64,000 nt of DNA from Alphaproteobacteria bacterium (GTDB lineage: Bacteria; Pseudomonadota; Alphaproteobacteria; MPNO01), in NCBI GenBank assembly GCA_965117055.1, contig OZ220750.1, positions 301,440 through 365,439 on the forward strand, read 5' to 3'. The position numbers and the translations under genes are program-made. The notes beneath the pieces were generated by a model, which saw nothing but the letters and a program-made list of their open reading frames with translations, was not told the DNA's origin and made no database searches. Shown here piece after piece: positions 18,744 to 41,557 of this stretch (position 1 is its first letter; each line of letters starts with the position of its first letter).

Positions 18744-18847
18744 CCTCTCCGCCCCCAGGGGCGGAGAGGGGGATTCGTTCGCCGAACCTTCCTTACCTTC
18801 TCCCCTCCCGCAAGCCCCGGATCGCAGTCCGGGGCTTGCGGGAGGGG
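18744..18847. repeat. REP-like palindromic elements, same family as 13873-13973 but inverted in order/orientation
   Basis: ccctctccgcccc-cag-ggggcggagaggg (18744-18770) and cccctcccgcaagccccgg...ccggggcttgcgggagggg (18802-18847). Confidence 0.6.
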
Positions 18848-18893
18848 CCGGGGGAGGGTGGGCCGTCGTGAACCGACAAGACCGAGCCTGACT

Positions 18894-19484: not shown

Positions 19485-19996
19485 CGCTCGATCCTCCGGC
19501 CGATCAGCGCGACCACGGGGCGGGATTCCGCATAGGCGCGCTCGATCGCGGGCGCGAGCCCGACGACGTCGGAAGAGGTCTCGATGCAGAAACGGTCGAT
19601 CCCCATCGCGTCGAGCACTGGCTCGACGATCCGCACCCCGTAATTCGCCGACTCCGACGCGGGCCGGTCCGGCTCCTTGCCGAGCAGCCCGACCGCCATG
19701 CAGATCGGCAGCCCGTAATCCATCCCGACCGCGCGGATGGCGTTGAGCGAGTCCATCAGCCCGGTCTGCTGCATCAGGAGAACCGCGCGCTTGTCGCAAT
19801 AGGAGAGCGCGGCGCAGATCGACACCCCCTCGTCCTCCTTGCAGAGGCGGATCAGCCGGATGCCGGGGTCCTCGGCGAGCCGCCACAGGATGCCGGTGCT
19901 GGTGACGATGTCGGGCAGCGCCGCGACATGGCCGACGCGTGCGGCCTTCAACGCGTCGACGATCTCGCTGCCGCGCGGGGTGTCGTCGTTCCGCAT
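19481..19996 (-). CDS. TPP-dependent decarboxylase alpha subunit (ComD-like), second copy
   Basis: 171-aa TPP-enzyme N-terminal pyrimidine-binding domain homolog; paralogous to 11138-11656. Confidence 0.7.
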   Translation of the reverse strand: MRNDDTPRGSEIVDALKAARVGHVAALPDIVTSTGILWRLAEDPGIRLIRLCKEDEGVSICAALSYCDKRAVLLMQQTGLMDSLNAIRAVGMDYGLPICMAVGLLGKEPDRPASESANYGVRIVEPVLDAMGIDRFCIETSSDVVGLAPAIERAYAESRPVVALIGRRIER

Positions 19997-20000
19997 CCGG

Positions 20001-20753
20001 TCAGCTCTCCGCCGCCTCGATGAGCAGCGCGGCGGTCCCCTCCGGCATGGTCACCATCGCGTCATGCCCGGTCGCCAGTTCGCGGAAACGCCAGGTCGGG
20101 TCGTTCCGGATCCGCTTCGCGAGGATTTTGAAGGGCGCCGGTCCTTCCGAGCCGGTGCACAGGATATAGGTGCGCGGCAGGCCGTCGGAGCCGCCGTTTT
20201 CGAGGCGGATCGGCTCGATCTGGGTGCGCACCGGGTGCGGCGTGATGCGCCGTTCCACCCAGCGATAGGGCTCCAGCGGGTCCTCGGGGATGTCGAACAT
20301 ATTGGTGTAGTGCGTCCTGGACCCGCCATGCTCTCCGGTGAGGTCGAGGCGGCGCTTGATCTCCGCGCCGATATCCGCATCGGTCGCGTCGGGGTTGGAG
20401 ACGGTCACCGCCATGGAGGCCGAGCTGTCTCCGTCCGCCGGCACGAAGGCGTCGAGATAGACCGCATGCGCCAGCCGGTCCTTCATGCGGTCGGCGACGC
20501 CGGTGATCACGTTGCCGCCGTATGAGTGTCCGACCAGGACGACGTCGTGGAGCTCCTCCCAGACGATCGTGTTGGCGACGTCGGTGACGTGGGTGTTCAT
20601 GTCGATGTCGTGCGACAGCAGGTGCGAGCGCTCGCCGAGGCCGGTCAGCGTCGGGGTGAACGCCTCGTGCCCGCCCGCGCGCAGGATCGTCCGCACGTCG
20701 CGCCAGCACCAGCCGCCATGCCACGCGCCGTGCACCAGGACGAATGTCGCCAT
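20001..20753 (-). CDS. alpha/beta hydrolase (salicylic-acid-binding-protein/methylesterase-like)
   Basis: VLVHGAWHGGWCW and GHSYGG nucleophile elbow. Confidence 0.7.
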   Translation of the reverse strand: MATFVLVHGAWHGGWCWRDVRTILRAGGHEAFTPTLTGLGERSHLLSHDIDMNTHVTDVANTIVWEELHDVVLVGHSYGGNVITGVADRMKDRLAHAVYLDAFVPADGDSSASMAVTVSNPDATDADIGAEIKRRLDLTGEHGGSRTHYTNMFDIPEDPLEPYRWVERRITPHPVRTQIEPIRLENGGSDGLPRTYILCTGSEGPAPFKILAKRIRNDPTWRFRELATGHDAMVTMPEGTAALLIEAAES

Positions 20754-20855: not shown

Positions 20856-21995
20856 ATGTTCGAGACCGCGACGATCGACCGCTCCACCTTCGACAGCGTG
20901 TTCAGGGAGGTCGAGGAGGCCGAGAGCCTGCCGGCCTGGTGCTACACCTCCGAGGAGTATTACCGGCTGGAGGTCCGCAACCTGTTCTCGCGGACCTGGA
21001 ACTTCTTCGGCCATGTCGACCAGGTGGCGGAGCCCGGCGACTTCATCGCGGTCGACTATGTCGGCGTGCCGATCCTGATCGTCCGGGGCGGGGACGGAGA
21101 GCTCCGGGCGTTCGCCAACAACTGCCGGCACCGCGGCACCCCGGTGGCGGACGGCGAGGGCAACTGCCGCGCCTTCACCTGCCCCTATCACGGCTGGGTG
21201 TACGATCTCGACGGCAAGCTCCACAGCGCGCCGGGGATGGAGCGGGCGAAGGACTTCGACCCCGCCGGCTACGGGCTGCGCGAACTGCGACTGGAGACCT
21301 GCGGCTGCTTCGTCTTCGTCAATTTCGACGACGACGCGCCGCCGCTTTCGGACTATCTCGGCAACTTCCCCGAGCTCATGGGGTCCTACGATCTCGACGA
21401 GCTCGCTTTGGTGCGCAAGCGGGTGCACGAGGTGGACTGCAACTGGAAGGTCCACATCGAGAATGCGATGGAGGAATACCACCTGCCGATGGTGCATGGG
21501 GCGACGCTCAACCCGAAGGAGATGGAGCATTCGGCGGCGCCCACCGAAGGCGCCTGGCTCGACATCCGCGAGCACCACGACGCGCACACGCGCTCGCTGC
21601 TGATCGAGGATCTGGAACACGAGCTGCCGCATATCGAGGGGCTGGAGGGGCGCGCGGCGATGGGCACCAACTATGTCTGCCTCAACCCGTCCACGATGCT
21701 CGGCATGACGCTGGATTCGGTGTGGTACCTGGAGCTCCAGCCGCAGGGCCCCAACCGCACGCGGGTGATCCACGGCGCCTGCTTCCCGAAGAAGACCGTG
21801 GCGCGGCCGGATTTCGAGGCCAAGGTGCCGTATTACTACAAGCGCTGGGACACCACGCTCGCCGAGGACAACGCGGTCGCCGCGCTGCAGCAGAAAGGGC
21901 TCAAATCGCCGCTCGCGCCGCGCGGCCGGTTCTCCCATCTCGAACCGCTGGTCCCGCGGCTCGCCCAGTGGTGGGTCGAACGGACCCTGGATTAG
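20856..21995 (+). CDS. Rieske (2Fe-2S) ring-hydroxylating oxygenase alpha subunit
   Basis: CRHRG...CPYHGW Rieske motif followed by catalytic domain; no beta-subunit gene adjacent. Confidence 0.8.
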   Translation: MFETATIDRSTFDSVFREVEEAESLPAWCYTSEEYYRLEVRNLFSRTWNFFGHVDQVAEPGDFIAVDYVGVPILIVRGGDGELRAFANNCRHRGTPVADGEGNCRAFTCPYHGWVYDLDGKLHSAPGMERAKDFDPAGYGLRELRLETCGCFVFVNFDDDAPPLSDYLGNFPELMGSYDLDELALVRKRVHEVDCNWKVHIENAMEEYHLPMVHGATLNPKEMEHSAAPTEGAWLDIREHHDAHTRSLLIEDLEHELPHIEGLEGRAAMGTNYVCLNPSTMLGMTLDSVWYLELQPQGPNRTRVIHGACFPKKTVARPDFEAKVPYYYKRWDTTLAEDNAVAALQQKGLKSPLAPRGRFSHLEPLVPRLAQWWVERTLD

Positions 21996-22010: not shown

Positions 22011-23000
22011 TTGCCCAACAGGGTTCGTCTCCATATCGAGAACGATTCGAGCCTCGGCGCCGTCTTCGAGGTGACCGGAGAACGACTGTCGGCGGCGTTC
22101 TCGCGCTTCCCCGATCTGGCCGAACGGGTCGACTGCAGCATCGGCTACGACTGCGCCGATTTCGACCGCCAGATCGCCGACGCCGACACGCTGGTGTGCT
22201 GGGACATCGACCACCGCAACATCGCGAAGCGGGCGCCGAGGCTGCGCTGGATCCACGCCACCGGCGCGGGGGTGGAGCACTTCACGCCGTTCGACTGGCT
22301 GCCGGACAACGTGGTCTTCACCAACAACCGCGGCGTCCACGGCGCGCGCGCCCACGAATACGCGATCATGTCGGTGCTGATGCTCAACAACCGTGTGCCG
22401 GAGATGGTCACCCACCAGCGCGCCGGCCGCTGGGAGCAGACCTTCAACACCGGCATCGCGGGAAAGACGCTGCTCGTCGTGGGCGTCGGCAGCGTCGGCG
22501 GCGGCGTCGCCGAATGGGCCAAGCGCTTCGGGATGCGGACGATCGGCGTGCGGCGGACGTCGCAGCCGCACCCCGCGGTCGACGAGATGCTGGGACCCGA
22601 GGCGCTCCTCGAGGCGATACCGCGCGCCGATTACATCATCGCGACCGCGCCCGCGACCGCGCATACCCGCCACCTGATCGGCAAGGCGGAGATCGAGGCG
22701 ATCAGGCCCGGCGGCGGCATCGTCAATTACGGCCGCGCCCGGGTGGTCGACTACGAGGCGCTGCGCCAGCGGCTGGAGCGGCGCGAGATCAGCGCCATCC
22801 TCGACGTGTTCGACCCGGAGCCCCTGCCCGCCGACTCGCCGCTCTGGCGGACCCCCAACCTGATAATCACGCCGCACTGTTCGTCCGACGATACCGAGCT
22901 CTACATCCCGCGGACGCTCGATCTGTTCTTCGAGAACATGCGCCGGTTCCTCGCCGGCGAGCCGCTTGAGAACCGCGTCGATCCGGTGCTGGAATACTGA
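22011..23000 (+). CDS. D-isomer-specific 2-hydroxyacid dehydrogenase family protein
   Basis: Rossmann GxGxxG (VVGVGSVGGGVA) and catalytic R/E/H arrangement of D-2-hydroxyacid dehydrogenases. Confidence 0.75.
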   Translation: MPNRVRLHIENDSSLGAVFEVTGERLSAAFSRFPDLAERVDCSIGYDCADFDRQIADADTLVCWDIDHRNIAKRAPRLRWIHATGAGVEHFTPFDWLPDNVVFTNNRGVHGARAHEYAIMSVLMLNNRVPEMVTHQRAGRWEQTFNTGIAGKTLLVVGVGSVGGGVAEWAKRFGMRTIGVRRTSQPHPAVDEMLGPEALLEAIPRADYIIATAPATAHTRHLIGKAEIEAIRPGGGIVNYGRARVVDYEALRQRLERREISAILDVFDPEPLPADSPLWRTPNLIITPHCSSDDTELYIPRTLDLFFENMRRFLAGEPLENRVDPVLEY

Positions 23001-23011: not shown

Positions 23012-24079
23012 GTGGCGCCGATGACCGCAACGATGATCATGGGGGCGTCCTACGGCTCCCTTCTCGCCATCAAGCTTCTGCTCGCCGGGCACGACGCGAA
23101 GCTGGTCTGCCTGCCCGACGAGGCGACCCTGATCAACGCGGAAGGCCAGCTCGTCCGCATGCCGGCGAAGGGGCGCGACGGGCCGGTCGAGGTTCATTCG
23201 AGCAGGCTGCCCGGGAAGCTGTCCGCCGCGACGCCCGCCGATGTCGATCCGGCCGATTACGACCTGATCGTGCTCGCCATGCAGGAGCCGCAATACCGCG
23301 CGCCCGGCGTGCGCGAGCTTCTCGACCGGGTGGCCGCCTCGAAGAAGCCGGTGATGTCGATCATGAACATGCCGCCGCTCGCCTATGTCAGGAGGATCCC
23401 GGGGATCGACACCGGCGGGCTCGACGGCTGCTACACCGACGCCTCGGTGTGGGACGGGTTCGAGCCGCCGCGCATCACGCTGTGCAGCCCCGATCCGCAG
23501 GCCTTCCGGCCGCCGGACGAGAAGACCAACGTGCTGCAGGTCAGCCTGCCGACCAATTTCAAGGCGGCGCGGTTCGACTCCGAGGAATCCACCGCCCTGC
23601 TCCGGGGATTGCAGGCCGATATCGAGGCGGCGACGTTCGACGACGGGAAAGGCGAGGTCGCGCTCCCCGTGAAGCTCAAGGTGCACGACTCGATCTTCGT
23701 CCCGCTCGCCAAGTGGGCGATGCTGCTGACCGGGAATTACCGCTGCGTCGGGGAGGGCGGGATGCGCCCGATCCGCGAGGCGGTGCACAGCGACCTCGCG
23801 CTGTCGGAAAGCGTCTACGACTGGGTCTGCGAGGTTTGCGAGGCGCTCGGCGCGGCCGAGGGCGATCTCGTGCCCTTCGAGAAATACGCCGCCGCCGCGG
23901 ACGGGCTGATCCGGCCTTCCTCGGCGGCGCGGGCGCTCGACGCCGGGGCCGTCAATATCGAGCGCGCCGACCGTCTGGTGCAGGCGCTGGCCGCCCAGAA
24001 GGGCATGCGGAACGATACCGTCGACGAGACTGTCGCGCGGGTCGATGCCTGGCTGGAAGGCAATCGGCGCAAGGCGTGA
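23012..24079 (+). CDS. ketopantoate-reductase-like (ApbA/PanE fold) NAD(P)-dependent oxidoreductase
   Basis: N-terminal Rossmann MIMGASYGSLLAIKLLLAGHD, about 350 aa; stop overlaps start of next gene (ATGA-type coupling). Confidence 0.5.
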   Translation: MAPMTATMIMGASYGSLLAIKLLLAGHDAKLVCLPDEATLINAEGQLVRMPAKGRDGPVEVHSSRLPGKLSAATPADVDPADYDLIVLAMQEPQYRAPGVRELLDRVAASKKPVMSIMNMPPLAYVRRIPGIDTGGLDGCYTDASVWDGFEPPRITLCSPDPQAFRPPDEKTNVLQVSLPTNFKAARFDSEESTALLRGLQADIEAATFDDGKGEVALPVKLKVHDSIFVPLAKWAMLLTGNYRCVGEGGMRPIREAVHSDLALSESVYDWVCEVCEALGAAEGDLVPFEKYAAAADGLIRPSSAARALDAGAVNIERADRLVQALAAQKGMRNDTVDETVARVDAWLEGNRRKA

Positions 24080-25476
24080 TGGACAGGACCCGTCAGGTCT
24101 GGCTGGAGACGCTCGACCGTCACCGCCGCGACACGGATGCCCCGGCGAACGACAGGTACTGGTCCGAAGCGCTCGAGACCTGCTCGCGCGACGAGCTGAT
24201 CGCCATCCAGAACGACAAGCTCAGGGCGCTGACGCCCTTCCTCTACGAGAACAGCGCGTTCTATCGCCGCCGCTTCGACCGGCTGGGGCTCGCGCCGACC
24301 GATATCCGGACGGTCGACGACCTTGAGAAATGGCCGGTGGTCGACAAGTCCGAGATGATGGAGGACGCGACGGAGAACCCGCCTTACGGGACCTATTCGA
24401 CCATCGGCGAGGCGGAGTGGGCAGACCGCGGCTGGATGCTGTTCTCCTCGTCGGGCAGCACCGGCGTCCCCCGCGTCTTCCGCTACACCCATATCGACCG
24501 GGGATACTGGGAGTGGGCCAACGCGCGCGCGCTCCATTCGATGGGCATCCGGCGCGGCGACAGCGTCTTCCCCATGGTCGGGTTCGGCCCCCATGTCTGG
24601 ATCTGGGGCGCGATGTACGCATTTGCGCGGATGGGGGTCGCGGCGATCCCCGGCGGCGGCATGGATGCCGAGGCCCGGGCGCGAACGATCGACCGCTTCA
24701 GGCCCACGGTGATCGCCGGGACGCCGTCCTACGCGCTCTATCTCGGCCGCACCATGGAACGGCTCGGGCTCGACCCGCGCGGCTCGTCGGTCAGGACCCT
24801 GTTCACCGGCGGCGAGCCCGCGATGGGGATCGACCGCACCCGCGAGCGGCTGGAAGAGCTCTGGGGGTGCCGGACGGTCGAGTTCTACGGCTGCACCGAA
24901 GTTTCTCCCCATGTCGGGGGCTATTCTTGCGAGGCTTCGGTGCGGCCCGGCGAGACCACGTTCACCCATCTGATGGAGGACGTGCAGATCTGGGAGCTGG
25001 TCGACCCCGACAACCTCGGGAGGGTGGAGGAAGGCGAGCGCGGGCTTACCGTCTGCACCTCGCTCAACTCCGAGAGCTCGCCGCAGCTCCGCTTCCTGGT
25101 CGGCGACTACACGGTCTACGACACCGGCGTCTGCGATTGCGGGCGGACCCATGTCCGCGCCATGGGGTCCTTCACCGGCCGCGCCGACGACCTGATCAAT
25201 TTGCGCGGGGTCAAGTTCTTTCCGAGCCAGGTCGAGCAGGCGGTGCGGTCGATCGAAGGAATCGGCGACGAGTTCGAGATCGTGCTCCGCACCAACCAGG
25301 ACGGCCTCGACGTGATGGACCTCCGCGTCGAGCACGCCTCCGGCGACGTGGCCGAGGCGGTCGGCGCGGCGGTCCGCAGCCGCTGCGAGGTCCGGGTCGG
25401 GGTCGAGGTGCTGCCGCCCGACACGCTGCCCAAGACGGAGTTCAAGGCAAAGCGCGTGCGCGACGAACGGGGATGA
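24079..25476 (+). CDS. PaaK-family (phenylacetate-CoA ligase / F390-synthetase-like) adenylate-forming enzyme
   Basis: ANL-superfamily core SSGSTGVPRV (P-loop), typical PaaK-family length and C-terminal domain. Confidence 0.65.
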   Translation: MDRTRQVWLETLDRHRRDTDAPANDRYWSEALETCSRDELIAIQNDKLRALTPFLYENSAFYRRRFDRLGLAPTDIRTVDDLEKWPVVDKSEMMEDATENPPYGTYSTIGEAEWADRGWMLFSSSGSTGVPRVFRYTHIDRGYWEWANARALHSMGIRRGDSVFPMVGFGPHVWIWGAMYAFARMGVAAIPGGGMDAEARARTIDRFRPTVIAGTPSYALYLGRTMERLGLDPRGSSVRTLFTGGEPAMGIDRTRERLEELWGCRTVEFYGCTEVSPHVGGYSCEASVRPGETTFTHLMEDVQIWELVDPDNLGRVEEGERGLTVCTSLNSESSPQLRFLVGDYTVYDTGVCDCGRTHVRAMGSFTGRADDLINLRGVKFFPSQVEQAVRSIEGIGDEFEIVLRTNQDGLDVMDLRVEHASGDVAEAVGAAVRSRCEVRVGVEVLPPDTLPKTEFKAKRVRDERG

Positions 25477-25892
25477 AACAGGCTTCGGCCGAACGCGAGG
25501 ACAGGATTGTGAAAGACACCGACTTCCCGCCCGGCGACCACACGAAGATCGCCGGCTATCACGCTCACATCTATTACGACGAAGAGACCCGCGAGACCGC
25601 CGCCCGGCTGCGCGGCCGGATCTGGGAAAAATGGGGTTTCGATATCGTCATGGGCCGTTTCCGCGACCGCCCGGTCGGGCCGCACCCGGAACCGATGTTC
25701 CAGGTCGCCTTCGACAAGGCGCTGTTCGCCGAGTTCGTGCCCTGGCTGATGTACAACCGGGACGGTCTCGTCGTGCTGGTCCATCCCGAGGCGGAGGACG
25801 CCCACGACGATCACGTCTACTACCCGCTCTGGCTCGGCGGGTTCTACGAGGTCAGGCGCGACTTCCTGCGCTCCGGGCAGCGCTCGGCGTAA
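25473..25892 (+). CDS. DOPA 4,5-dioxygenase-like (YgiD/DUF1904-type) family protein
   Basis: HAHIYYD signature near N-terminus, about 138 aa; TGA/ATG overlap with upstream ligase gene. Confidence 0.5.
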   Translation: MKQASAEREDRIVKDTDFPPGDHTKIAGYHAHIYYDEETRETAARLRGRIWEKWGFDIVMGRFRDRPVGPHPEPMFQVAFDKALFAEFVPWLMYNRDGLVVLVHPEAEDAHDDHVYYPLWLGGFYEVRRDFLRSGQRSA

Positions 25893-27003
25893 TCCGCGCC
25901 AGCGCCAGCGCGCCCACGAGACCGCCCGCCGACATCGCCGCCATGGCGTAGAACGCGCCGGCGCCGACATCGTCGTAGAGCGCTCCGGCCACGATAACGG
26001 CGCCGCCCATGACGAGCCCCATCGCCATCCCGGAATAGAGCGCCTGGGCGCTCGCCGAGTGCTCGGGCGGAACCGAGCGGACGATATACAGCATGGCGCC
26101 CAGATGGGCCGCGCCGAAGGTGAGCGCGTGCAGCGCCTGGAGGAAGACGAGCAGCCCCAGCCCGGGCTCGATGGCGAACCCGATCCAGCGGACGATTCCC
26201 GCGATCGCGGCGATGGCGAGCAGCCGGGCCGGACCCAGCCGCGCGGCGAGCCCGCCGCCGAGCGCGAACAGAACGATCTCCGCGAGCACGCCCTCGGCCC
26301 ACAGCAGGCCGATGATGTCGTCGTCGATTCCCGCGTCGCGCCAGGCGAGCGTCGCGAAACCGTACGCAGCCGCGTGGCTCGCCTGGATCAGCGAGGCGGT
26401 GACGAGGAACACCGCCATCGAAGGCTGCGACAGGAGGGCGGCGGCCGGCACGCGGCGGCGCGCCGGCGGCGATCCGGTCTCCGGCATCGTAAGCGAAGCC
26501 AACACGGTGAGCGCCAGCGTGCCGAGGACCAGCCACAGGATCACGTCGGCACCGGCGCCTCCCACCATCCGACCGCCGGCGGTTGCGCCCACGATGAAGG
26601 CGATCGAGCCCCACAGGCGGACACGGCCGTAGTCGAAACGGCGTTCCCGGGAAGCGAGAAGGGTCATGTTCTCGCCCATCGGAATGATCGGCGTGAAGGC
26701 GATCGCGGCGAGAATGCTGACGGCGAGAAGCGCCGCGAAACCTTCCGCGATCAGGAACAGCAGGTGTACCGCGAAAGACGAGAGCGTGAGCAGGATCAGG
26801 ACCCCGCGCCGGCGTCCCCGACGGTCCGCGAAATGCGCGGCGAGCGCGGGCGCGGCGATTCTGATCCAGCTTCCCGCGGTGAAGAGGATCCCGATCTCGA
26901 TCGCGCTCATCCCCTTCGCGGTCAGCCAGACCGGCCAGAACGGCAGCGACACGCCGACGAACAGGAAGACCGCCGCGTAGAACAGAGCAAGGCGCACCGC
27001 CAT
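25852..27003 (-). CDS. MFS transporter
   Basis: About 12 predicted hydrophobic helices, MFS-typical G-rich loops; convergent with 25473-25892. Confidence 0.7.
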   Translation of the reverse strand: MAVRLALFYAAVFLFVGVSLPFWPVWLTAKGMSAIEIGILFTAGSWIRIAAPALAAHFADRRGRRRGVLILLTLSSFAVHLLFLIAEGFAALLAVSILAAIAFTPIIPMGENMTLLASRERRFDYGRVRLWGSIAFIVGATAGGRMVGGAGADVILWLVLGTLALTVLASLTMPETGSPPARRRVPAAALLSQPSMAVFLVTASLIQASHAAAYGFATLAWRDAGIDDDIIGLLWAEGVLAEIVLFALGGGLAARLGPARLLAIAAIAGIVRWIGFAIEPGLGLLVFLQALHALTFGAAHLGAMLYIVRSVPPEHSASAQALYSGMAMGLVMGGAVIVAGALYDDVGAGAFYAMAAMSAGGLVGALALARITPSAARSAGSRA

Positions 27004-27088
27004 CGCCGATCCCGTGGTCCCGAATTCACTCACCCATACCCAACGCCTATAGTGGACCGACCCGCGGCCACCGCGAAGGGAGACCCCC

Positions 27089-28828
27089 ATGCCTCAGGAA
27101 CAGATCCAGGTCGACAGCCTGGCGGAAGCCTATCTCGCGCTCTTGAAGGACCGGGGCGTCGACTACCTGTTCGGCAATGCGGGAACCGATTTCGCATCGG
27201 TCATCGAGGCGCTGTCGAAGTCCGCCACCGAAGGAACCAGCGCGCCCACGCCGATGACGGTTCCGCACGAGAACCTCGCGGTTTCCATGGCGCATGGCTA
27301 CTTCCTCGCCACCGGCAAACCGCAGGCGGTGATGGTCCATGTCAATGTCGGCACGGCCAACGCGATCTGCGGCATCACCAACGCGGCGCGCGAGAACGTG
27401 CCGATCATCTTCACCTCGGGCCGGACTCCGCTGACCGAGAGCGGCGCGCCCGGCGCGCGGTCGATCTACATCCATTGGGGCCAGGAGATGTTCGACCAGG
27501 CGGGCATGGTCCGCGAGATGGTCAAGTGGGACTACGAGCTGCGCAACGCGCGTCAGCTGGAAACCATCGTCGACCGCGCGGTCAACGTGGCGATGAACGA
27601 GCCGAGGGGGCCGGTCTATCTCACCCTGCCGCGCGAGGTGCTGGCCGAGAAGCCGGGTGAGTTCGCGTATGAGAGCCCGACGCGCCGGCTTACCGCGTCC
27701 AGCCCCGCGCCGGACCCCAACGCGATCGACCAAGCGGCCGATTGGATCGCGGCGGCGGAGAACCCGCTGGTGATCACCGCCAGCGCCGGCCAGAACCCGG
27801 CCTCGGCGAAGGCGCTCACCGATCTCGTCGAGCGGTATGCGCTGCCGGTGGTGACGTACCGTCCGCGCTACGTCTCGGTGCCCACCGACCACGAGATGCA
27901 CATGGGGTTCGAGCCGGGCGGCTTGGTCAAGGAGGCCGATCTGATCCTGGTGGTCGATTGCGACGTGCCCTGGATCCCGAGCCTGCACAGCCCCAACCCG
28001 GACGCCAAGGTGGTGCACATGGGCGTCGATCCGCTGTTCAGCACCTACCCGGTGCGGGGCTATCCCTGCGACCTCGCGATCACCGCGGAATCGAGCCTCG
28101 GCCTCGCGGCGCTCGGTGAAGCCTTGGGCGAAGGGATGAACGGACGCATCGACGGGCGACGGGCGCGCGCCGCCGAACGCAAGGCCGCGGCGGCAGAGGC
28201 GCGCGCGGCGCGGATCGAGGCGGCGAGGACCCGCGGCGCCACCGACTCCGCCTGGATCGCGCACTGCATCGACGAGATCAAGGACGACGACGACGTGATG
28301 GTGAGCGAATCCCAGCTCGCCCTCGGCAATATCGATTTCCGCGAGCCGGGCACCTTCTTCGCCACCAGCCCGGCCGGCGGGCTCGGCTGGGGGATGGGCG
28401 CCTCGCTCGGCGTCAAGCTGGGTTACGGCGACCGCCGGGTGTTCTGCGTCGTGGGCGACGGCTCCTACATGTTCGGCAACCCGACGCCCGCGCATTTCGT
28501 CTCCGCCGCCAACGGCCTGCCGGTGCTCACCGTGATCCTCAACAACCGGATGTGGGGATCGGTGCGGAAGGCGACGCTCGGCCTGCACCCCAACGGCGCT
28601 GCGTCGCGCACCAACCGCGCGCCTCTCACCTATCTCGAACCCGCGCCGGCCTATCACAAGGTCGTCGAGGCCTCCGGCGGCTACGGCGAGGAAGTCGAGA
28701 CCCCCGACGCGCTGCCCGGCGCGCTGGAGCGCGGGCTGAAGGCCGTCGAGGTCGAAAAGCGCCAGGCGGTGCTGAACGTCCAGACGGCCTACGACGACTC
28801 GGCGGCGCTCGCCGATTCCAGACGCTGA
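27089..28828 (+). CDS. thiamine-pyrophosphate-dependent enzyme (acetolactate-synthase/benzoylformate-decarboxylase-like)
   Basis: N-terminal TPP pyrimidine domain (YLFGNAGTDFASV), central domain, and C-terminal GDG-X-N TPP-binding motif (VVGDGSYMFGNPTP...NNRMWG). Confidence 0.75.
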   Translation: MPQEQIQVDSLAEAYLALLKDRGVDYLFGNAGTDFASVIEALSKSATEGTSAPTPMTVPHENLAVSMAHGYFLATGKPQAVMVHVNVGTANAICGITNAARENVPIIFTSGRTPLTESGAPGARSIYIHWGQEMFDQAGMVREMVKWDYELRNARQLETIVDRAVNVAMNEPRGPVYLTLPREVLAEKPGEFAYESPTRRLTASSPAPDPNAIDQAADWIAAAENPLVITASAGQNPASAKALTDLVERYALPVVTYRPRYVSVPTDHEMHMGFEPGGLVKEADLILVVDCDVPWIPSLHSPNPDAKVVHMGVDPLFSTYPVRGYPCDLAITAESSLGLAALGEALGEGMNGRIDGRRARAAERKAAAAEARAARIEAARTRGATDSAWIAHCIDEIKDDDDVMVSESQLALGNIDFREPGTFFATSPAGGLGWGMGASLGVKLGYGDRRVFCVVGDGSYMFGNPTPAHFVSAANGLPVLTVILNNRMWGSVRKATLGLHPNGAASRTNRAPLTYLEPAPAYHKVVEASGGYGEEVETPDALPGALERGLKAVEVEKRQAVLNVQTAYDDSAALADSRR

Positions 28829-30003
28829 TGGGCTTCCCCGGGGAGGCCGTCAACGGGGCGCTGGAAAGGCTCCACGCCCACCCCTTCTATCGTGGACGAC
28901 TGCCCAAGGCGGTCGCGGACAAAGAAGAATTCGCTGACACCGTACCCCTGATGACGCGGGCGGATTTCGTCGCCGAGATGGCAAAGCCGGGCTACGGCGG
29001 GTTCGGCGGCGCGAAGCCGGTCCGCGCCAACTTCACACCGATGGGTCCGTCCCTGGTGCCGGTCTTCCAGACCCGGGGCGACCTTGACCGCATGATCGCG
29101 GCCGCGGGCACCCATCTCGCCGCCTGCGGAATCGGCCAGGGCGACGTCTGCGCGGTGACCTTCGGCTACCACCTGTTCGTCGCCGGTCTGTTCTACCAGT
29201 CGCAGATGGAGGCGCACGGCATCGCCTGCATTCCGCTCGGCCCCGGCGAAGCGGAGCGCGCGGTCGAAATATGCAACGGTCACGGCGTGACCGTGCTCGC
29301 CGGCAATCCGAGCTTTTCCCTGCGGCTGATCGAGGCGGGCCTCAACCCGCCCAGGGTGTTCTTCGCCGGCGGCGAGGCATTCACCGGCAACGCCGCGCTC
29401 TATGCGAGGGTTCGCGCGGCGATGCCGGAGACCACGCTGGTCGACGCGTTCTCCCTCTCCGAGTTCCTTCCCGTCGCGCGCACCTTCCCCGGCGGCGAGG
29501 GCGTTCACGTGTTCGACGAGCTGGTCCATGCCGAGGTGATAAACCCCGAAACGCTGCAACCGGTGCCGGACGGGGAGCGCGGCGAGCTGGTGCTGACCCA
29601 TCTGGTCAAGGAGGCTCAGCCGCTCGTCCGCTACCGCACCGGCGACCTCACGATCCGGCGGACGACGGCGCCGGTGCACGGCCGCACGGTCAGCCTGCCG
29701 CGCGTGGTCTTCGGCCGCACGGACGAGATGGTCAAGGTCAAGGGGGTCAAGATCTACCCGTCCGAGATCCGTGCGGTCCTCCTCGGCATCGACGGGCTGA
29801 CCGGGAAATACCGCATCGCCGTCGAAGCGGAGCGGGGACGCGACCGGCTCGCGCTGATCCTCGAAGGCAGCGTGGACGACGATGCGCTGGAAACCGTGGC
29901 CGAGCGGTTCAGGAGCCAGACCCTGATCGGCGCCGACCGGATCGAGGTCGCGGCGGCGCTCGACGACGGCCCGGTCACAGTGGACCGCAGGGGTTCCGCA
30001 TGA
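28828..30003 (+). CDS. PaaK-family adenylate-forming enzyme (second, shorter paralog)
   Basis: PaaK/F390-synthetase-like fold; ATGA overlap with upstream TPP enzyme and downstream ligase-like gene. Confidence 0.55.
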   Translation: MGFPGEAVNGALERLHAHPFYRGRLPKAVADKEEFADTVPLMTRADFVAEMAKPGYGGFGGAKPVRANFTPMGPSLVPVFQTRGDLDRMIAAAGTHLAACGIGQGDVCAVTFGYHLFVAGLFYQSQMEAHGIACIPLGPGEAERAVEICNGHGVTVLAGNPSFSLRLIEAGLNPPRVFFAGGEAFTGNAALYARVRAAMPETTLVDAFSLSEFLPVARTFPGGEGVHVFDELVHAEVINPETLQPVPDGERGELVLTHLVKEAQPLVRYRTGDLTIRRTTAPVHGRTVSLPRVVFGRTDEMVKVKGVKIYPSEIRAVLLGIDGLTGKYRIAVEAERGRDRLALILEGSVDDDALETVAERFRSQTLIGADRIEVAAALDDGPVTVDRRGSA

Positions 30004-31112
30004 GCGGCTGGCGTCTGGTGGTCGACCGAGGCTCCTACGCCGATTTCTCGGTTTCGGTCTCGCCCGCGGTGGAGAAGGCGGTGACGCGTGGGGAAGCGCC
30101 GCCGACGGTTTTCCTCAACGTCTTCGATTCCGACTCGATCACCATCGGCGTCAACGAGGACCCCGAGCAGGTGCTCGACCTCGAATTCTGCCGCGCCCGG
30201 GGGATCGATTTCCGCCGCCGCGTCAATGGCGGCGGGCCGATCTATGCCGGGGCCGGGTCGGCGTTCCTGATCTATTTCCTGCCCGTCTCGCACAAGGAGG
30301 TTCCGGCGACCACCGAGGAGGCGTTCCGCAAGATCCTGAGCGCGGTCGCTGATGTGTTCCGCGACCGCTACGCCTTCCCGGCGGAATACCGCCCGCTCAA
30401 CGACATCCAGGTCGAAGGGCGGAAACTGGTTCCCGCCTCGCTCAAGATCGAGGACGGGGCGATGACGCTCCGCATCGTGGTCAACGTAAAGCCGATCGAT
30501 ACGGAGCTGGCGGGCAAGGCGATGCCGATGCCGCCGGAGAAGGTCCGCGACAAGGCGCTGAAGACGCTGGAATCGCGTTTCACCTGGCTGGAGAGGGAGG
30601 CCGGCCGCGAGATCGACGAAGAAGAGCTGACCGCTTTCGCCATGGCCTGCACCGAACGGGCTTTCGGCGAATCGGGGCTGGAACGGGCAATGCTCGGCGC
30701 GGTGGAACGAGACTACGCTGATGCCTTTCGGGCCGAGCTCGATACCGAGGCCTGGCTGTTCGGGAAGTCCGAACGGATCCGCTTCGCCGATACGCTCCGT
30801 CTCGGCGACCTGGTGGGAAGGGGCCGCGAGAAGGCGATGGGCGGGATGATCCGCGCGACGCTGGCCGTCCGGGACGGGATCGTCCTCGATACGATCGTCA
30901 ACGGCGACTGGCACCCGCGCCCGCTCGAATCCATCGATTGGCTCGAGCGCTCGCTCGCCGGTGTGCCGGCCAAGGCGGACTCTCTGAGGCGCGCCGTGGA
31001 AGTCTTCCTCGCTCGTGACGACGTGGAGTTCGCGGGCATCGGGGCCGACGACCTGATGGTCGCGCTCGAAGCCGCGCTCGCCGAGCTGCGACCGTGGACC
31101 GGCGCGTCCTGA
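30000..31112 (+). CDS. biotin/lipoate A/B protein ligase-family protein (lipoate-protein-ligase-like)
   Basis: BPL/LPL catalytic-domain-like N-terminal half (FLNVFDSDSITIGVNEDPEQVLDLEFCRARGIDFRRRVNGGGPIYAGAG). Confidence 0.5.
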   Translation: MSGWRLVVDRGSYADFSVSVSPAVEKAVTRGEAPPTVFLNVFDSDSITIGVNEDPEQVLDLEFCRARGIDFRRRVNGGGPIYAGAGSAFLIYFLPVSHKEVPATTEEAFRKILSAVADVFRDRYAFPAEYRPLNDIQVEGRKLVPASLKIEDGAMTLRIVVNVKPIDTELAGKAMPMPPEKVRDKALKTLESRFTWLEREAGREIDEEELTAFAMACTERAFGESGLERAMLGAVERDYADAFRAELDTEAWLFGKSERIRFADTLRLGDLVGRGREKAMGGMIRATLAVRDGIVLDTIVNGDWHPRPLESIDWLERSLAGVPAKADSLRRAVEVFLARDDVEFAGIGADDLMVALEAALAELRPWTGAS

Positions 31113-31543
31113 ACCCCACGCCCGATGCGCCGGGCGCCTACGCGCTGATCCTCCGGCTCGCCCGCGAAACCCGCCTCGACATCGCGTCCCTCGGCCGGCC
31201 CGTCCTGCCCGCCGGGCTCTACCTCTACGCCGGCAGCGCCTGGGGTCCGGGCGGCATCCGCGCCCGCGTCTCCCGGCATCTGCGCCGGGGCAAGGCGCGA
31301 GTCTGGCACATCGACCGCCTGACAGAGGCGGCGGCGGTCGAACGAGTCATCGCGTTTCCCGGCGGGCGGGAGTGCGCCATCGTCGCCGCGGCAACGGGCG
31401 CAAGTGTCCCGATAGCCCGCTTCGGCGCCTCCGATTGCCGGCGCTGCGAGGCGCATCTCCTGGCGGTGGAACCCTATATCGTCGACGCGTTGACGCCGAT
31501 TGCCCTTGACAAGGATGATATCCTTTCTAAAACAAGGATATGA
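31094..31543 (+). CDS. DUF123-family protein (GIY-YIG nuclease superfamily)
   Basis: GAYALILRL...GLYLYAGSA...RVSRHL...RVWHIDRL pattern of DUF123/GIY-YIG-like proteins; overlaps upstream gene by 19 nt and is followed by vapB with 4-nt overlap. Confidence 0.5.
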   Translation: MDRRVLNPTPDAPGAYALILRLARETRLDIASLGRPVLPAGLYLYAGSAWGPGGIRARVSRHLRRGKARVWHIDRLTEAAAVERVIAFPGGRECAIVAAATGASVPIARFGASDCRRCEAHLLAVEPYIVDALTPIALDKDDILSKTRI

Positions 31544-31836
31544 GCAAGGTCACCAGCAAGCTCCAGGTTACGCTGCCCAAGGCGCTCGCCGAGCGTTACG
31601 GAATCGAGCCCGGCGACGATATCCGCTTCGAAGAGGCGGGCGAAGTCATCCGCGTGGTGCCCGCCGGTGTCGATGCGGCGGCCAGAGGTCTCGGCACCGA
31701 GGTGCGGCTGCGCCTGTTCGACGCCGCAACCGACCGCCAGCGGGCGCGCGATGCGGGTCGACCCGCACGTCGCGCCGAGACGCGCGGCTGGACCCGGGAG
31801 GAACTCTACGAGCGTGGCCCCCAGGACGCTGATTGA
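31540..31836 (+). CDS. vapB: VapB-type antitoxin (AbrB/SpoVT/MazE-fold)
   Basis: N-terminal swapped-hairpin DNA-binding motif LQVTLPKALAERYGIEPGDDI; overlaps vapC. Confidence 0.75.
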   Translation: MSKVTSKLQVTLPKALAERYGIEPGDDIRFEEAGEVIRVVPAGVDAAARGLGTEVRLRLFDAATDRQRARDAGRPARRAETRGWTREELYERGPQDAD

Positions 31837-32257
31837 CACCAATATACTGGTCTATCGTTACGACAGCCGATTTCCGGACAAGCGGTCTATCGCATCCGAT
31901 GTCCTGCGCGACGGAATTGCCGAGGGAACCGCGCGCATCCCCCACCAGGCGATCGTCGAGTTCGTCGTGGCAACGACCCGGGGCTCTCCGGAAGACCGGT
32001 TGCTCGACGCCGCGGACGCGCGACGGGAGGCCGAAGAGCTTATGATGCAGTTCCCGATCCTCTATCCCGATGAAGCCGTGCTGCGGATGGCGCTACGGGG
32101 CGCGGCGGCGTACCGCCTGTCCTGGTTCGACGCACACCTCTGGGCGTATGCGGAAGTCCATGGCATCGAGGAACTGCTGTCCGAGGACTTTCAACATGGC
32201 CGCACGTACGGCACGGTGACGGTCCGAAACCCCTTCCTGACGCAAGCCCTTCACTAG
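31814..32257 (+). CDS. vapC: VapC-type PIN-domain toxin (GTG start, 23-nt overlap with vapB)
   Basis: LIDTNILVY N-terminal PIN signature with conserved acidic residues downstream. Confidence 0.7.
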   Translation: MAPRTLIDTNILVYRYDSRFPDKRSIASDVLRDGIAEGTARIPHQAIVEFVVATTRGSPEDRLLDAADARREAEELMMQFPILYPDEAVLRMALRGAAAYRLSWFDAHLWAYAEVHGIEELLSEDFQHGRTYGTVTVRNPFLTQALH

Positions 32258-32336: not shown

Positions 32337-33122
32337 ATGAGCGCCGACAAACCCGTGCTGACGATCGACCGGCCGGAGGAGGGAATCGCCCGCATCGGGC
32401 TCAACCGGCCGGAGAAGCGCAACGCGCTCGATCCCGAGCTTAGGCTGGCGCTGATCGACGGGATCGAGTCGGTGCTGGCGGACCCGTCCGTCCGCGCCGT
32501 TGTCCTCGCCGGCAATGGCGGGCATTTCTGCGCCGGCGGGGACATCGCCTCGATGGAGGGGCTCGACGCGGCGGCGGGGCGCGCGCGGATGAAGTCCAAC
32601 CACCGCATGGTCCGGCTGATCGCGGATGCCGAGAAACCCGTGATAGCCGCGATCGAGGGCTATGCGGTCGGCGCCGGAGCCGGCATCGCGCTTCTCGCCG
32701 ACACCGTCGCGATCGCCGAGACCGGCGCGATCGGATTTCCGTTCTTCAAGGTCGGATTGATCCCCGACTACGCGATCCTTCACACCCTGCCGCGCCGGGT
32801 CGGAGCGGCCAGAGCGCGCCAGATCCTCCTCTACGCGCGGATGCAGCGGGGCGCGGAGGCGGTCGAAGTCGGGCTCGCCGACGAGCTCGCGCCCGAGGGC
32901 GGGGCCGAGGCCGTCGCGCTGGAACGCGCGCAGGAACTCGCCGCCATGCCGGCGCTCGCCTTCGCGCTGGCCAAGCAGCAGATCGGGCTCGCGCCGGTGA
33001 GCCTGGAAGCGGCGCTGGAGATGGAGGCGCTGGGCCAGGCCTCCAATTTCACCACCGCCGACTTCGCCGAGGGCCGCGCGGCGTTCAGGGAGAAGCGCGC
33101 GCCCGACTTCCGGCGCTCGTAG
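32337..33122 (+). CDS. enoyl-CoA hydratase/isomerase (crotonase) family protein
   Basis: Crotonase fold signatures (GNGGHFCAGGDI oxyanion-hole region). Confidence 0.8.
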   Translation: MSADKPVLTIDRPEEGIARIGLNRPEKRNALDPELRLALIDGIESVLADPSVRAVVLAGNGGHFCAGGDIASMEGLDAAAGRARMKSNHRMVRLIADAEKPVIAAIEGYAVGAGAGIALLADTVAIAETGAIGFPFFKVGLIPDYAILHTLPRRVGAARARQILLYARMQRGAEAVEVGLADELAPEGGAEAVALERAQELAAMPALAFALAKQQIGLAPVSLEAALEMEALGQASNFTTADFAEGRAAFREKRAPDFRRS

Positions 33123-33132: not shown

Positions 33133-34659
33133 ATGACGATCGATCCTCAGTCGCCCGATCTCTCGCTCGGCGTCATCGGCACGGGAACCATGGGCCGGGG
33201 CATCGCCCAGATCGCGGCGGCGGGGGGTCTTTCCGTCCGGCTGTACGACACGCGCGACGGCGCGGCGGAAGAGGCATCCGCCTTCGTCTCGCGAATGCTG
33301 CTGAGGGCGGCGGAAAAGGGCGGCATGACGGAGAGCGCGGCCAAGGCAGCGATCGCCCGGCTCGCCATCGTCGACGGTCTCGATGCGATGGCGAACGCCG
33401 ACATCGTGGTCGAAGCGATCGTGGAGGAGCTGGAGGCCAAGAAACGGCTTTTCGCCGAGCTCGAATCCATCGTCTCCGCCGACTGCATCCTCGCCTCCAA
33501 CACCTCGTCGCTCTCGGTGACCGCCATCGCCGCCGATTGCGAGCGGCCGGAGCGCGTCGCCGGCTGGCATTTCTTCAATCCGGTGCCCCTCTTGAAGGTG
33601 GTCGAGGTGGTCGACGGACTCTTGACCGCGCCCTGGGTCGGCGATGCGCTTCACGGCATCGCGCGGCGCTGCGGCCACCGCCCGGTGCGCGCCAAGGATT
33701 CGCCCGGCTTCCTGGTCAACCACGCCGGGCGCGGGTTCGGCACCGAGGGCCTCAGGATCGTCCAGGAAGGCATCGCAGCCCCCCGCGACGTCGACGACAT
33801 CCTGCGCGACGGCGGCACCCGGTTCCGCATGGGTCCGTTCGAGTTGTTCGACACGACCGGGCTCGACGTTTCCGGCGTGGTGATGGAATCGATCTACCGC
33901 CAGTTCTACGAGGAGCCGCGGTTTCGGCCGGCCCCGCTCACCCGCCAGCGCATGGCCGCCGGGCTCTACGGGCGCAAGACCGGGCGCGGGTTCTATGCCT
34001 ATGAGGACGGGAGGAAGGCGGCGGTAGAAGCTGCGGCGGTTCCCCAGGCGGACCCGGCCCCGGTCTGGGTGAGCCCAGCGGACCCCGAAGGTCAGGAAGC
34101 GGTCATGGCGGCCATCGCCGAGGCGGCGACGCTGGAGAGCGGGGCCGGCCCCGGCCCCGGAACGCTCTGCATCGTCACCCCGACCGGGACGGATGCCACG
34201 ACCACCGCTCTCGACCAGGGGCTTCCGCCCGAACGCACGGTAGCGGTCGACACGGCGTTCGGCCTCGACGGCAGGCGCACCGTCATGACCACCCCGGTAA
34301 CGGAACCCCGCTGGCGCGATCTCGCCCATGCGCTGCTCGCCGCCGACGGCACGCCGGTCACGGCGATCGGAGACAGCCCCGGCTTCGTTGCCCAGCGGGT
34401 GATCGCGACCGTCGTCAATATCGGTTGCGACATCGCCCAGCAGGGAATCGCGAGTCCCGCCGACATCGACGCCGCGGTCGAGCTCGGCCTCGCCTATCCG
34501 CGCGGCCCGATCGCCTGGGGCGACTGGCTCGGACCCGCCAGGGTGCTGGCCATCCTCGAAGCGTTGCACGACTTCTACCGCGATCCGCGCTACCGCCCGA
34601 GCCCGTGGCTGACCCGCCGCGCGAGTCTCGGCGTGCCTCTCTCCACGATCGCGCGCTGA
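33133..34659 (+). CDS. 3-hydroxyacyl-CoA dehydrogenase (NAD-binding), extended C-terminus
   Basis: N-terminal GxGxxG (VIGTGTMGRGIA) and 3HCDH catalytic region (NTSSLS). Confidence 0.8.
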   Translation: MTIDPQSPDLSLGVIGTGTMGRGIAQIAAAGGLSVRLYDTRDGAAEEASAFVSRMLLRAAEKGGMTESAAKAAIARLAIVDGLDAMANADIVVEAIVEELEAKKRLFAELESIVSADCILASNTSSLSVTAIAADCERPERVAGWHFFNPVPLLKVVEVVDGLLTAPWVGDALHGIARRCGHRPVRAKDSPGFLVNHAGRGFGTEGLRIVQEGIAAPRDVDDILRDGGTRFRMGPFELFDTTGLDVSGVVMESIYRQFYEEPRFRPAPLTRQRMAAGLYGRKTGRGFYAYEDGRKAAVEAAAVPQADPAPVWVSPADPEGQEAVMAAIAEAATLESGAGPGPGTLCIVTPTGTDATTTALDQGLPPERTVAVDTAFGLDGRRTVMTTPVTEPRWRDLAHALLAADGTPVTAIGDSPGFVAQRVIATVVNIGCDIAQQGIASPADIDAAVELGLAYPRGPIAWGDWLGPARVLAILEALHDFYRDPRYRPSPWLTRRASLGVPLSTIAR

Positions 34660-40509: not shown

Positions 40510-40636
40510 TGCCGCTCCATTTCCGCCGATTTGCCCAGGGCGGGGGAGCGTTTAGCACGCCGCGCGCGGTGGAAACAGCCGCGCCCTCTTTCTAGGATCG
40601 CCGCCCGGCGCCACCAAACAGCGAAAGAAGCCAAGC

Positions 40637-41539: not shown

Positions 41540-41557
41540 CCGGCGCCGATCGAAGGG

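Follow-up and report, generated by a model that had tools for sequence, protein, structure and literature searches.

Gene content and conserved core of the locus

The DNA stretch analysed here, in the following termed the window, comprises 64,000 nt of contig OZ220750.1 (assembly GCA_965117055.1) and originates from an alphaproteobacterial genome of the Defluviicoccus type. It harbours two overlapping genes encoding a PaaK-type protein of the ANL group (PaaK2) and a protein resembling lipoate-protein ligase A (LplA-like), embedded in a patchwork of genes for putative catabolic enzymes. The GC content of the window is approximately 68%, and the third-position GC of every listed open reading frame (ORF) is 0.86–0.92 compared with ~0.68 for the genome, which stands out and argues that the ORFs are real genes. 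All ORFs named in an initial annotation of this DNA were found in place by third-position GC and sequence reading. Assignment of each ORF with profile hidden Markov models (HMMs) upheld most of the family calls (Rieske protein, 2-hydroxyacid dehydrogenase [2HADH], two PaaK-type ANL proteins, thiamine pyrophosphate [TPP] enzyme, LplA/B domain, and major facilitator superfamily [MFS] transporter). The two genes of central interest are the following.

28828–30003, plus strand: PaaK2, a P-loop-less PaaK-type ANL protein of 391 amino acids (aa) with AMP-binding and AMP-binding_C_2 domains
30000–31112, plus strand: LplA-like two-domain protein of 370 aa (PF21948, 82.5 bits)

The distribution of the locus was analysed in a homologue scan with the LplA-like protein, limited to one genome per GTDB species. 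Of 103 species returned, 80 were kept, and neighbouring genes were counted by tblastn of all window proteins against these 80 species-representative loci. The LplA-like protein has hundreds of close homologues. The nearest orthologues (83–91% identity) belong to Defluviicoccus-type Alphaproteobacteria, several of them from sponge or marine metagenomes. Other carriers are marine Rhodospirillales, Roseospira, Algihabitans, Kiloniellales, a few Rhodobacterales, Paraburkholderia, Caballeronia, and Burkholderia, and the gene pair spans Alpha- and Betaproteobacteria (Paraburkholderia, Caballeronia). Among Paraburkholderia species, the LplA-like gene is patchy, which fits an accessory gene. An exact-sequence lookup of the window's LplA-like protein returned no record, and a tblastn search with this protein against the PLSDB plasmids gave no match.

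Upstream sequence is available for 79 of the loci. All of these carry PaaK2, which lies directly upstream of the LplA-like gene in 78. The junction of the two genes could be resolved in 48 loci; the LplA-like gene mostly starts −8 to +5 nt from the PaaK2 stop, a 4-nt overlap being the commonest arrangement. PaaK2 followed by LplA-like are the sole invariant partners and constitute the conserved core of the locus. The eight genes that had initially been grouped together are, according to synteny mining, not co-inherited as a set. A crotonase gene occurs in 75 of the 80 loci (68 of these at most 1.5 kb downstream), and a gene for a 3-hydroxyacyl-CoA dehydrogenase (HCDH) in 56. The genes for the TPP enzyme and a DUF123 protein were each detected in 35 loci, the MFS transporter gene in 34, and the gene for a small DOPA-dioxygenase-family protein (DODA-like) in 32, the last in two different architectures. 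The remaining genes are clade-restricted and confined to the Defluviicoccus clade: a second PaaK-type gene, PaaK1 (13 of 80), 2HADH (12), the Rieske oxygenase (11), and a ketopantoate-reductase (KPR)-like gene (11).

The loci could be sorted by architecture. In type A/B, the MFS gene is oriented divergently from the series TPP–PaaK2–LplA-like–DUF123–crotonase–(FabK/NMO-like)–HCDH. The window represents this type with a clade-specific upstream module and an inserted toxin–antitoxin cassette. In the marine type C, genes for a TRAP transporter, a gentisate 1,2-dioxygenase (459 bits vs. a cutoff of 442), MarR, and a FAH-family hydrolase precede DODA-like–PaaK2–LplA-like, which are followed by crotonase–thiolase/HMGCS-like/DUF35–FabK-like–HCDH. 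Type D, found in Paraburkholderia, starts with LysR, SDR, acetyl-CoA hydrolase/transferase, and thiolase genes, then PaaK2–LplA-like, and continues with crotonase–MaoC hydratase–citrate-synthase-like–hotdog–PrpD; further genes encode an acyl-CoA dehydrogenase, a family III CoA-transferase, an HpcH lyase, and a branched-chain-type ABC transporter. The neighbours in every lineage belong to CoA-ester catabolism (thiolases, hydratases, acyl-CoA dehydrogenases, CoA-transferases, gentisate 1,2-dioxygenase, and acid transporters). At the marine loci that were checked, the vicinity contained no further acid-CoA ligase.

PaaK2 is an ANL protein without P-loop

The motifs of PaaK2 were compared among 76 unique orthologues, which are 60–94% identical to the window protein. 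In place of the P-loop (A3), these proteins carry a conserved (S/T)PMGxxLVP. In a direct alignment to the solved 2-hydroxyisobutyryl-CoA synthetase (HCL; 6hdw), PMGPSLV is opposite GTSGTTGRP with a three-residue deletion. No conserved lysine was found in the last ~30 residues, where the A10 lysine is expected. The Pfam AMP-binding match is confined to profile positions 229–374, the C-terminal part, which accords with the loss of the P-loop. The motifs A5 (SLSE), A7 (YRTGD), and A8 (GRxDxMxKxxGVK) are invariant, and the two-domain architecture is kept. PaaK2 scored below the PaaK equivalog cutoffs (131 and 173 bits vs. 646 and 700 for TIGR02155 and NF041878, respectively); PaaK2-type genes are nonetheless annotated publicly as "phenylacetate-CoA ligase". 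The locus had been credited with two carboxylate-adenylating enzymes. Two PaaK-type ANL proteins are indeed encoded, but this wording is inaccurate because PaaK2 is devoid of the ATP-binding P-loop and the adenylation lysine.

Outside the Defluviicoccus clade of the window, PaaK2 is better conserved than the LplA-like protein (60–75% vs. 53–70% identity). Throughout the PaaK2 family, the residues C100, C108, C134, H115, H227, and H258 do not vary, whereas the aligned solved PaaK sequences differ at these positions. The six residues may constitute a metal site or an acyl-thioester site.

The LplA-like protein retains the fold and adenylate site of LplA

In Foldseek searches, the AlphaFold2 (AF2) model of the LplA-like protein (pLDDT 87) matched LplA structures over their full length and thus also in the C-terminal accessory domain (TM-score 0.67–0.72); the TM-score to Escherichia coli LplA (1x2g) was 0.72 at 17% sequence identity. 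Among 15 diverse orthologues, F71 of the motif FRRRxNGGG, N134, D135, and K142 are invariant. In an alignment to the motifs of Enterococcus faecalis LplA, K142 coincides with the catalytic lysine of LplA (equivalent to K133 of E. coli). The designation as BPL/LplA-like therefore holds with regard to the LplA/B catalytic domain, the fold, and the adenylate-site motifs. The protein scored below all NCBIfam cutoffs (TIGR00545, 65 vs. 280; LplAB, 75 vs. 550; LplA_large, 54 vs. 480; LplB, 37 vs. 65). In public databases, the LplA-like genes are annotated as "lipoate-protein ligase A".

Possible protein acceptors were searched for with phmmer in six-frame ORFs (E ≤ 1) using GcvH, E2p lipoyl domain, and biotin carboxyl carrier protein (BCCP) queries. 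The search covered ±10 kb at 83 loci and the whole window and detected no lipoyl, biotinyl, or GcvH acceptor; a BCCP gene in an unrelated locus was recovered as positive control. On a metagenomic contig (L095, 556–9068), the PaaK2/LplA-like pair is accompanied by a divergent ABC transporter, DUF35, a thiolase-like gene, and a second LplA-like paralogue (49% identity), which directly follows the DUF35/thiolase pair. This arrangement links the LplA-like clade to thiolase/DUF35 enzymes.

Among more distant relatives, long LplA-like proteins fused to DUF116 were observed (among P0146, P0210, P0218, P0238, P0240, P0241, and P0261; L084, 298–3803). One protein of 1117 aa combines two LplA modules with DUF116 and CO_dh (acetyl-CoA synthase epsilon-like), and another contig contains three tandem LplA-like paralogues. 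None of these fused, duplicated, or tandem proteins is associated with PaaK2.

Downstream enzymes

The steadiest companions of the gene pair are encoded downstream.

32337–33122, plus strand: crotonase-family protein, predicted to be of the PaaG/isomerase type, 261 aa (sub-cutoff NCBIfam matches to PRK08138, alternative oxepin-CoA hydrolase, and PaaG)
33133–34659, plus strand: PaaH-like 3-hydroxyacyl-CoA dehydrogenase (HCDH), 508 aa (NF006124 [PRK08268], 672 bits vs. a cutoff of 508)

In 56 unique crotonase orthologues, Gly116 and Phe136 are invariant at both hydratase glutamate positions, which we take to correspond to E144 and E164 of rat enoyl-CoA hydratase on the basis of its well-known motifs. 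An invariant Asp144 is found at position 136 of the PaaG profile TIGR02280, as deduced from the HMM-match offset (137 bits vs. a cutoff of 345). By these residues, the active site is predicted to be of the isomerase/PaaG type and not that of a canonical hydratase. The HCDH scored below the PaaH equivalog TIGR02279 (420 bits vs. 669). The initial annotation had noted the absence of paaABCDE and paaGHIJ. PaaABCDE is indeed missing from the 64-kb window; for paaGHIJ, the statement is not quite true because PaaG-like and PaaH-like genes are encoded downstream of the pair.

Accessory modules of the locus

Upstream of PaaK2 and directly downstream of the LplA-like gene, three genes were assigned to an accessory module (TPP, MFS, and DUF123) that is common to many marine Rhodospirillales.

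25852–27090, minus strand: HcaT-like MFS transporter (MFS_1_like, 200 bits)
27089–28828, plus strand: TPP-dependent enzyme of the PRK08327 family, 579 aa (TPP_enzyme_N, M, and C; related to benzoylformate decarboxylase [BFD], benzaldehyde lyase, and 2-hydroxyacyl-CoA lyase [HACL])
31094–31543, plus strand: DUF123 protein, 149 aa (PF01986, 78.7 bits), whose start overlaps the LplA-like stop by 19 nt

The MFS protein scored just above the cutoff of NCBIfam PRK11128, "3-phenylpropionate MFS transporter" (261.8 vs. 259 bits). Its true start is probably at 27003, since residue 32 is the first one covered by the Pfam match and the orthologues have a length of ~381 aa; this leaves a divergent region of 85 nt before the TPP gene. 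The TPP enzyme passed the equivalog cutoff of PRK08327 (NF006203; 695 bits vs. 456), a family without an assigned reaction. Its best PDB matches are BFD (115 bits) and HACL (88 bits), and it remained under the NCBIfam cutoffs for BFD (170 vs. 493), acetolactate synthase (ALS; 150 vs. 538), and HACL (124 vs. 600). The former description as an ALS/BFD-like enzyme is appropriate insofar as it is a three-domain TPP enzyme with BFD among its relatives, although the cutoffs of both named families are failed. In other genomes, the TPP enzyme travels with PaaK2/LplA-like and not with PaaK1. DUF123 mostly co-occurs with the TPP and MFS genes in the 80 genomes; neither the PDB nor full-text literature searches provided a functional lead for it.

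A toxin–antitoxin cassette separates DUF123 from the crotonase gene.

31540–32257, plus strand: toxin–antitoxin cassette with an AbrB/MazE antitoxin (31540–31836, PF04014) and a PIN toxin (PF01850)

The antitoxin ATG overlaps the DUF123 stop codon (ATGA). The PIN ORF extends from 31667, the true start probably being near 31.82 kb. PIN was detected in only 6 of the 80 related loci, and elsewhere DUF123 abuts the crotonase gene; the cassette is therefore regarded as a recent insertion.

Further upstream, five genes form a lineage-specific accessory module that was added in the Defluviicoccus-type genome.

20856–21995, plus strand: Rieske non-haem-iron oxygenase alpha subunit, 379 aa (Pfam Rieske and Ring_hydroxyl_A)
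22011–23000, plus strand: D-isomer-specific 2-hydroxyacid dehydrogenase (2HADH), 329 aa (PF02826, 150 bits)
23012–24079, plus strand: protein with KPR/D-mandelate dehydrogenase fold, ORF of 355 aa (fold match, without Pfam model)
24079–25476, plus strand: PaaK1, canonical PaaK/HCL-type acyl-CoA ligase, 465 aa (AMP-binding and AMP-binding_C_2)
25473–25892, plus strand: DODA-like small protein of the PF08883 DOPA_dioxygen family, 139 aa (101 bits vs. a gathering score of 25)

The top NCBIfam match of the Rieske protein is GbcA-like and far under the cutoff. The KPR-fold gene probably starts with the ATG at 23021, giving 352 aa, because its orthologues have this length and a ribosome-binding site (RBS), GGAAGGAG, is located ahead of 23021. 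The protein had no Pfam or NCBIfam match at E ≤ 0.01, including the Pfam ApbA models, and no match in the PDB by sequence or by profile. The top 48 Foldseek matches of its AF2 model (pLDDT 84) were all KPR (PanE) or D-mandelate dehydrogenases (E-values down to ~1e-11, TM-scores of 0.6–0.76), so that the earlier KPR-like call is borne out at the fold level only. Homologues with ~73% identity (L087–L090) are stand-alone genes in unrelated neighbourhoods, and the linkage to this locus is consequently considered local. The KPR-fold family as such is large (>8000 matches, ~73% identity across Rhodospirillales), has no Pfam model, and is annotated just as "hypothetical protein".

PaaK1 differs from PaaK2 in its intact P-loop (SSSGSTGVPR) and keeps all core motifs. 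Its best PDB matches are HCL (6hdw, 225 bits) and PaaK (2y27, 210 bits), and it scored 228 and 245 bits against the PaaK equivalog cutoffs of 646 and 700 (TIGR02155 and NF041878). The DODA-like protein is related to the PDB entries 2peb (118 bits) and 2nyh, both labelled "putative dioxygenase". Its assignment to the DOPA dioxygenase family is correct (PF08883, Amanita DodA type). The YgiD label given to it is wrong: YgiD is a member of the LigB family, and no match to PF02900 (LigB/YgiD type) was obtained in the Pfam scan. The members of this module all suggest 2-hydroxy- or 2-oxo-acid chemistry, a flavour shared in the window by the 2HADH, the reductase with D-mandelate dehydrogenase fold, the HCL-like PaaK1, and the BFD-like TPP enzyme.

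Transcriptional organisation

The initial annotation had described a single operon of eight translationally coupled genes. Overlaps of 1–4 nt are present at the four junctions cited in support, namely KPR-like/PaaK1 (TGATG at 24077–24081), PaaK1/DODA-like (ATGA at 25473–25476), TPP/PaaK2 (TGATG at 28826–28830), and PaaK2/LplA-like (ATGA at 30000–30003), whereas Rieske/2HADH and 2HADH/KPR-like are separated by gaps of 15 and 11 nt. The opposite-strand MFS transporter in the middle of the set and the position of the Rieske and 2HADH genes upstream were confirmed. The MFS and DODA-like genes are convergent, and their 3′ ends overlap by 41 nt (25852–25892). In the 85-nt divergent region between MFS and TPP, an RBS precedes the TPP gene start and a promoter-like site was identified.

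27025–27053, plus strand: sigma-70-like promoter match (TTCACT-17-TATAGT, 9/12; a consensus match only)

A single operon is unsupported because the opposite-strand MFS gene and the promoter-like site divide the genes, and the parts are distributed independently across the 80 genomes. The locus is a composite catabolic island, or patchwork, rather than one operon. The end of the unit at 31112 was also set too early: the unit extends through DUF123, the toxin–antitoxin insertion, the crotonase, and the 508-aa HCDH, the crotonase and dehydrogenase companions thereby having fallen outside. Genes for transketolase, GAPDH, and PGK follow downstream of the HCDH. A terminator scan yielded fewer matches than shuffled controls and none at the module boundaries. 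The Rfam scan of the whole window gave zero matches, thus indicating no riboswitch or leader ahead of the operon.

Other genes of the window

Upstream of the cluster, an Amidohydro_2 gene (17632–18681, plus strand) was found. On the minus strand, the ORF 19481–19996 has a weak TPP_enzyme_N match, and the ORF 18793–19467 contains TPP-binding motifs recognised by eye without a Pfam match; the two ORFs combined look like a TPP-dependent decarboxylase that has been split. At 20001–20753 (minus strand), an alpha/beta hydrolase gene follows. A stretch of lower GC content (6000–10000, 0.59–0.62) contains an IS1595-family transposase gene (8390–9343, minus strand), and a STAND/AAA ATPase gene (16223–17401, minus strand) lies in another lower-GC patch, which suggests that DNA close to the cluster is mobile or was acquired recently. 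A second Rieske oxygenase alpha subunit (3348–4616) is encoded beside a PhyH-family dioxygenase (2454–3278) and an esterase (1037–1897). The region 39037–54785 comprises genes for two large subunits of molybdenum enzymes of the xanthine dehydrogenase/aldehyde oxidase type (46338–49094 and 52461–54785, both minus strand), two FAD_binding_2 flavoproteins, and a further crotonase (40637–41539).

Proposed function of the PaaK2/LplA-like pair

The formation of acyl-CoA by ANL enzymes and the lipoylation of proteins by LplA are textbook two-step reactions, each accomplished by a single protein. For the gene pair described here, a two-protein acid-activating enzyme appears to be the most economical explanation, because the LplA-like adenylate site is kept without a protein acceptor, PaaK2 lacks the ATP-handling elements, and the context is that of CoA esters, often with no other ligase nearby. 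We tentatively favour, on the basis of sequence and synteny, that such an enzyme would feed a CoA-dependent, Paa-like lower pathway. The LplA-like subunit would form an acyl-adenylate from ATP and the acid. PaaK2, which keeps the AMP/ribose-binding and hinge motifs, would run the thioester-forming half-reaction or supply the CoA site. The resulting acyl-CoA might be passed on to the crotonase of the predicted isomerase type and to the dehydrogenase, as well as to thiolases where other genomes encode them. From the gene content, the synteny statistics, the pattern of motif loss and retention, and the folds observed, we infer a physical partnership, a division of labour between both proteins, CoA as the acceptor, and the class of the substrate. 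The latter may loosely be described as an aromatic or ring-cleavage-derived carboxylate, as hinted at by the HcaT-like MFS transporter, the type C gentisate dioxygenase, the PF08883 protein, and the BFD/HACL-related TPP enzyme. In its most far-reaching form, the proposal would make the adenylating protein with LplA fold and the P-loop-less ANL protein, reduced to the thioester-forming half, a previously unrecognised two-component acyl-CoA synthetase, which would constitute a new class among the enzymes that activate acids; this version is possible, if doubtful.

Several observations weigh against a two-protein enzyme. The hand-over of an acyl-AMP between two proteins is mechanistically unusual, and LplA-type enzymes normally transfer to a protein lysine. 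No fusion of PaaK2 and LplA-like was found among 120 + 120 close homologues and the best 150 representatives of 1.84 billion proteins. A canonical AMP-binding ligase and CoA-transferases are additionally encoded at some loci of Paraburkholderia and Algihabitans, and the pair therefore need not form the CoA ester there. The invariant cysteine and histidine residues of PaaK2 hint at chemistry outside the proposed model. Moreover, LplA-like relatives at 38–45% identity stand alone without PaaK2, so that PaaK2 is no intrinsic requirement of the LplA-like fold. These stand-alone genes, together with the retention of both LplA domains and all adenylate-site motifs, would be compatible with the LplA-like protein being a genuine lipoate- or octanoate-protein ligase that is merely syntenic, PaaK2 then representing an independent unusual ligase or a pseudo-enzyme. 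We consider this unlikely in view of PaaK2 being directly upstream in 78 of 79 loci of two proteobacterial classes with frequent start/stop overlap, the lack of lipoyl, biotinyl, and GcvH acceptors within ±10 kb at the 83 loci, an LplA score far under the NCBIfam cutoff (65 vs. 280), the patchy occurrence in Paraburkholderia, and the paralogue linked to DUF35/thiolase.

The LplA-like protein could also, on its own, adenylate the acid and transfer it to a small thiol, for instance CoA, or to a small amine, with PaaK2 serving as a non-catalytic scaffold, specificity, or regulatory subunit. The missing P-loop and A10 lysine of PaaK2 would suit such a role, and LplA-family enzymes are established to carry out both half-reactions in one protein. 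Since PaaK2 is better conserved than its partner outside the Defluviicoccus clade, and A5, A7, A8, and many invariant polar residues argue for a catalytic function, this arrangement seems rather improbable. In the initial annotation, the products of one eight-gene operon were proposed either to activate an aromatic or 2-oxo acid for conjugation to a carrier or cofactor-like acceptor, or to synthesise a small metabolite with an amide linkage. The PaaK superfamily does include amide- and ester-forming ligases (DdaG, BagE/FevW, and AjiA1 were among the weak matches), and LplA enzymes form amide bonds. In comparison with acid activation for degradation, conjugation is nevertheless disfavoured, because the conserved neighbours are degradative CoA-ester enzymes and no carrier protein, acceptor domain, or condensation enzyme was found at the locus. 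The eight genes are, in addition, not co-inherited and are divided by the opposite-strand gene and the promoter-like site, which leaves little probability for the proposal as a whole.

Comparison with known systems

In their PaaK-type two-domain ANL architecture, PaaK1 and PaaK2 resemble PaaK and HCL (2y27, 6hdw), and PaaG-like and PaaH-like enzymes are among the neighbours. Both proteins are far below the PaaK equivalog cutoffs, and PaaK2 in addition differs from PaaK and HCL by the loss of the P-loop and the A10 lysine. We know of no obligate LplA-like partner of PaaK or HCL. In the LplA-like protein, the two-domain fold of LplA (1x2g, 5ij6, 8cri) is combined with its RRxxGGG loop, ND motif, and catalytic lysine. 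The protein differs from LplA in the low identity (~17%), the sub-cutoff scores, and the absence of a nearby lipoyl-domain acceptor, as well as in its constant pairing with a degenerate ANL protein and its setting in CoA-ester catabolic clusters. An assignment to the sLpl(AB)/sHdr lipoate assembly system (NCBIfam LplAB, LplB) was rejected, as the scores are far below cutoff and an LbpA/GcvH-like gene is missing at the loci searched.

The lower phenylacetate pathway (PaaG, PaaH, PaaJ) is paralleled by the crotonase, which has a putative single PaaG-type aspartate and no hydratase glutamates, by the 508-aa HCDH of the PaaH-related subfamily PRK08268, and by thiolases in other lineages. Here, in contrast, crotonase and HCDH fall below the PaaG and PaaH equivalog cutoffs, PaaABCDE, PaaZ, and PaaF are absent, and the activating enzyme is different. 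The ring epoxidase PaaABCDE was not encountered among the annotated genes of the 64-kb window or of the related loci examined. Elements of the route via HCL and 2-hydroxyacyl-CoA lyase and of the mandelate dehydrogenase/BFD route are present in the window (HCL-like PaaK1, BFD/HACL-related TPP enzyme, 2HADH, and the reductase with D-mandelate dehydrogenase fold). The TPP enzyme of the window, however, is of the PRK08327 family and fails both the BFD and HACL cutoffs, and the cluster contains no aldehyde dehydrogenase. The assumption that the whole cluster encodes a phenylacetate, mandelate, or 2-hydroxyisobutyrate pathway was rejected, since every equivalog cutoff was failed and PaaABCDE and an aldehyde dehydrogenase are absent.

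No paper on such a pair was retrieved by full-text literature searches in which lipoate-protein ligase was coupled with terms for PaaK-type or CoA ligases, and the combination of PaaK-like, LplA-like, and TPP proteins matches no described pathway, as had been stated initially. The concept of dividing adenylation and thioester formation between two proteins has a precedent in Streptomyces sp. WA46, for which a salicylyl-AMP ligase and a probable salicylyl-CoA synthetase were proposed to activate salicylate on the way to gentisate (PMC4600096). The pathway there leads to gentisate, and a gentisate 1,2-dioxygenase gene neighbours the pair in the marine type C loci; the adenylating partner of strain WA46 is described as an AMP ligase and not as a protein with LplA fold.

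Implications

Both folds of the pair are already known. Their obligate pairing, the specific loss of motifs in the ANL protein, and the catabolic context have no description in the searchable literature. The pairing of a crippled ANL protein with an intact LplA-like enzyme is kept in ~100 species of marine Rhodospirillales, Defluviicoccus, and Paraburkholderia. If the proposed function is true, acid-activating enzymes could be built in a way not recognised before, and the LplA fold would have a role other than lipoylation, having been recruited to small-molecule catabolism. The automatic labels "phenylacetate-CoA ligase" and "lipoate-protein ligase A" on these genes would then need correcting. 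The gene pair points to an as yet uncharacterised pathway of degradation in Alphaproteobacteria that are abundant, marine, and associated with sponges, and the cultured Paraburkholderia carriers make the question directly testable.

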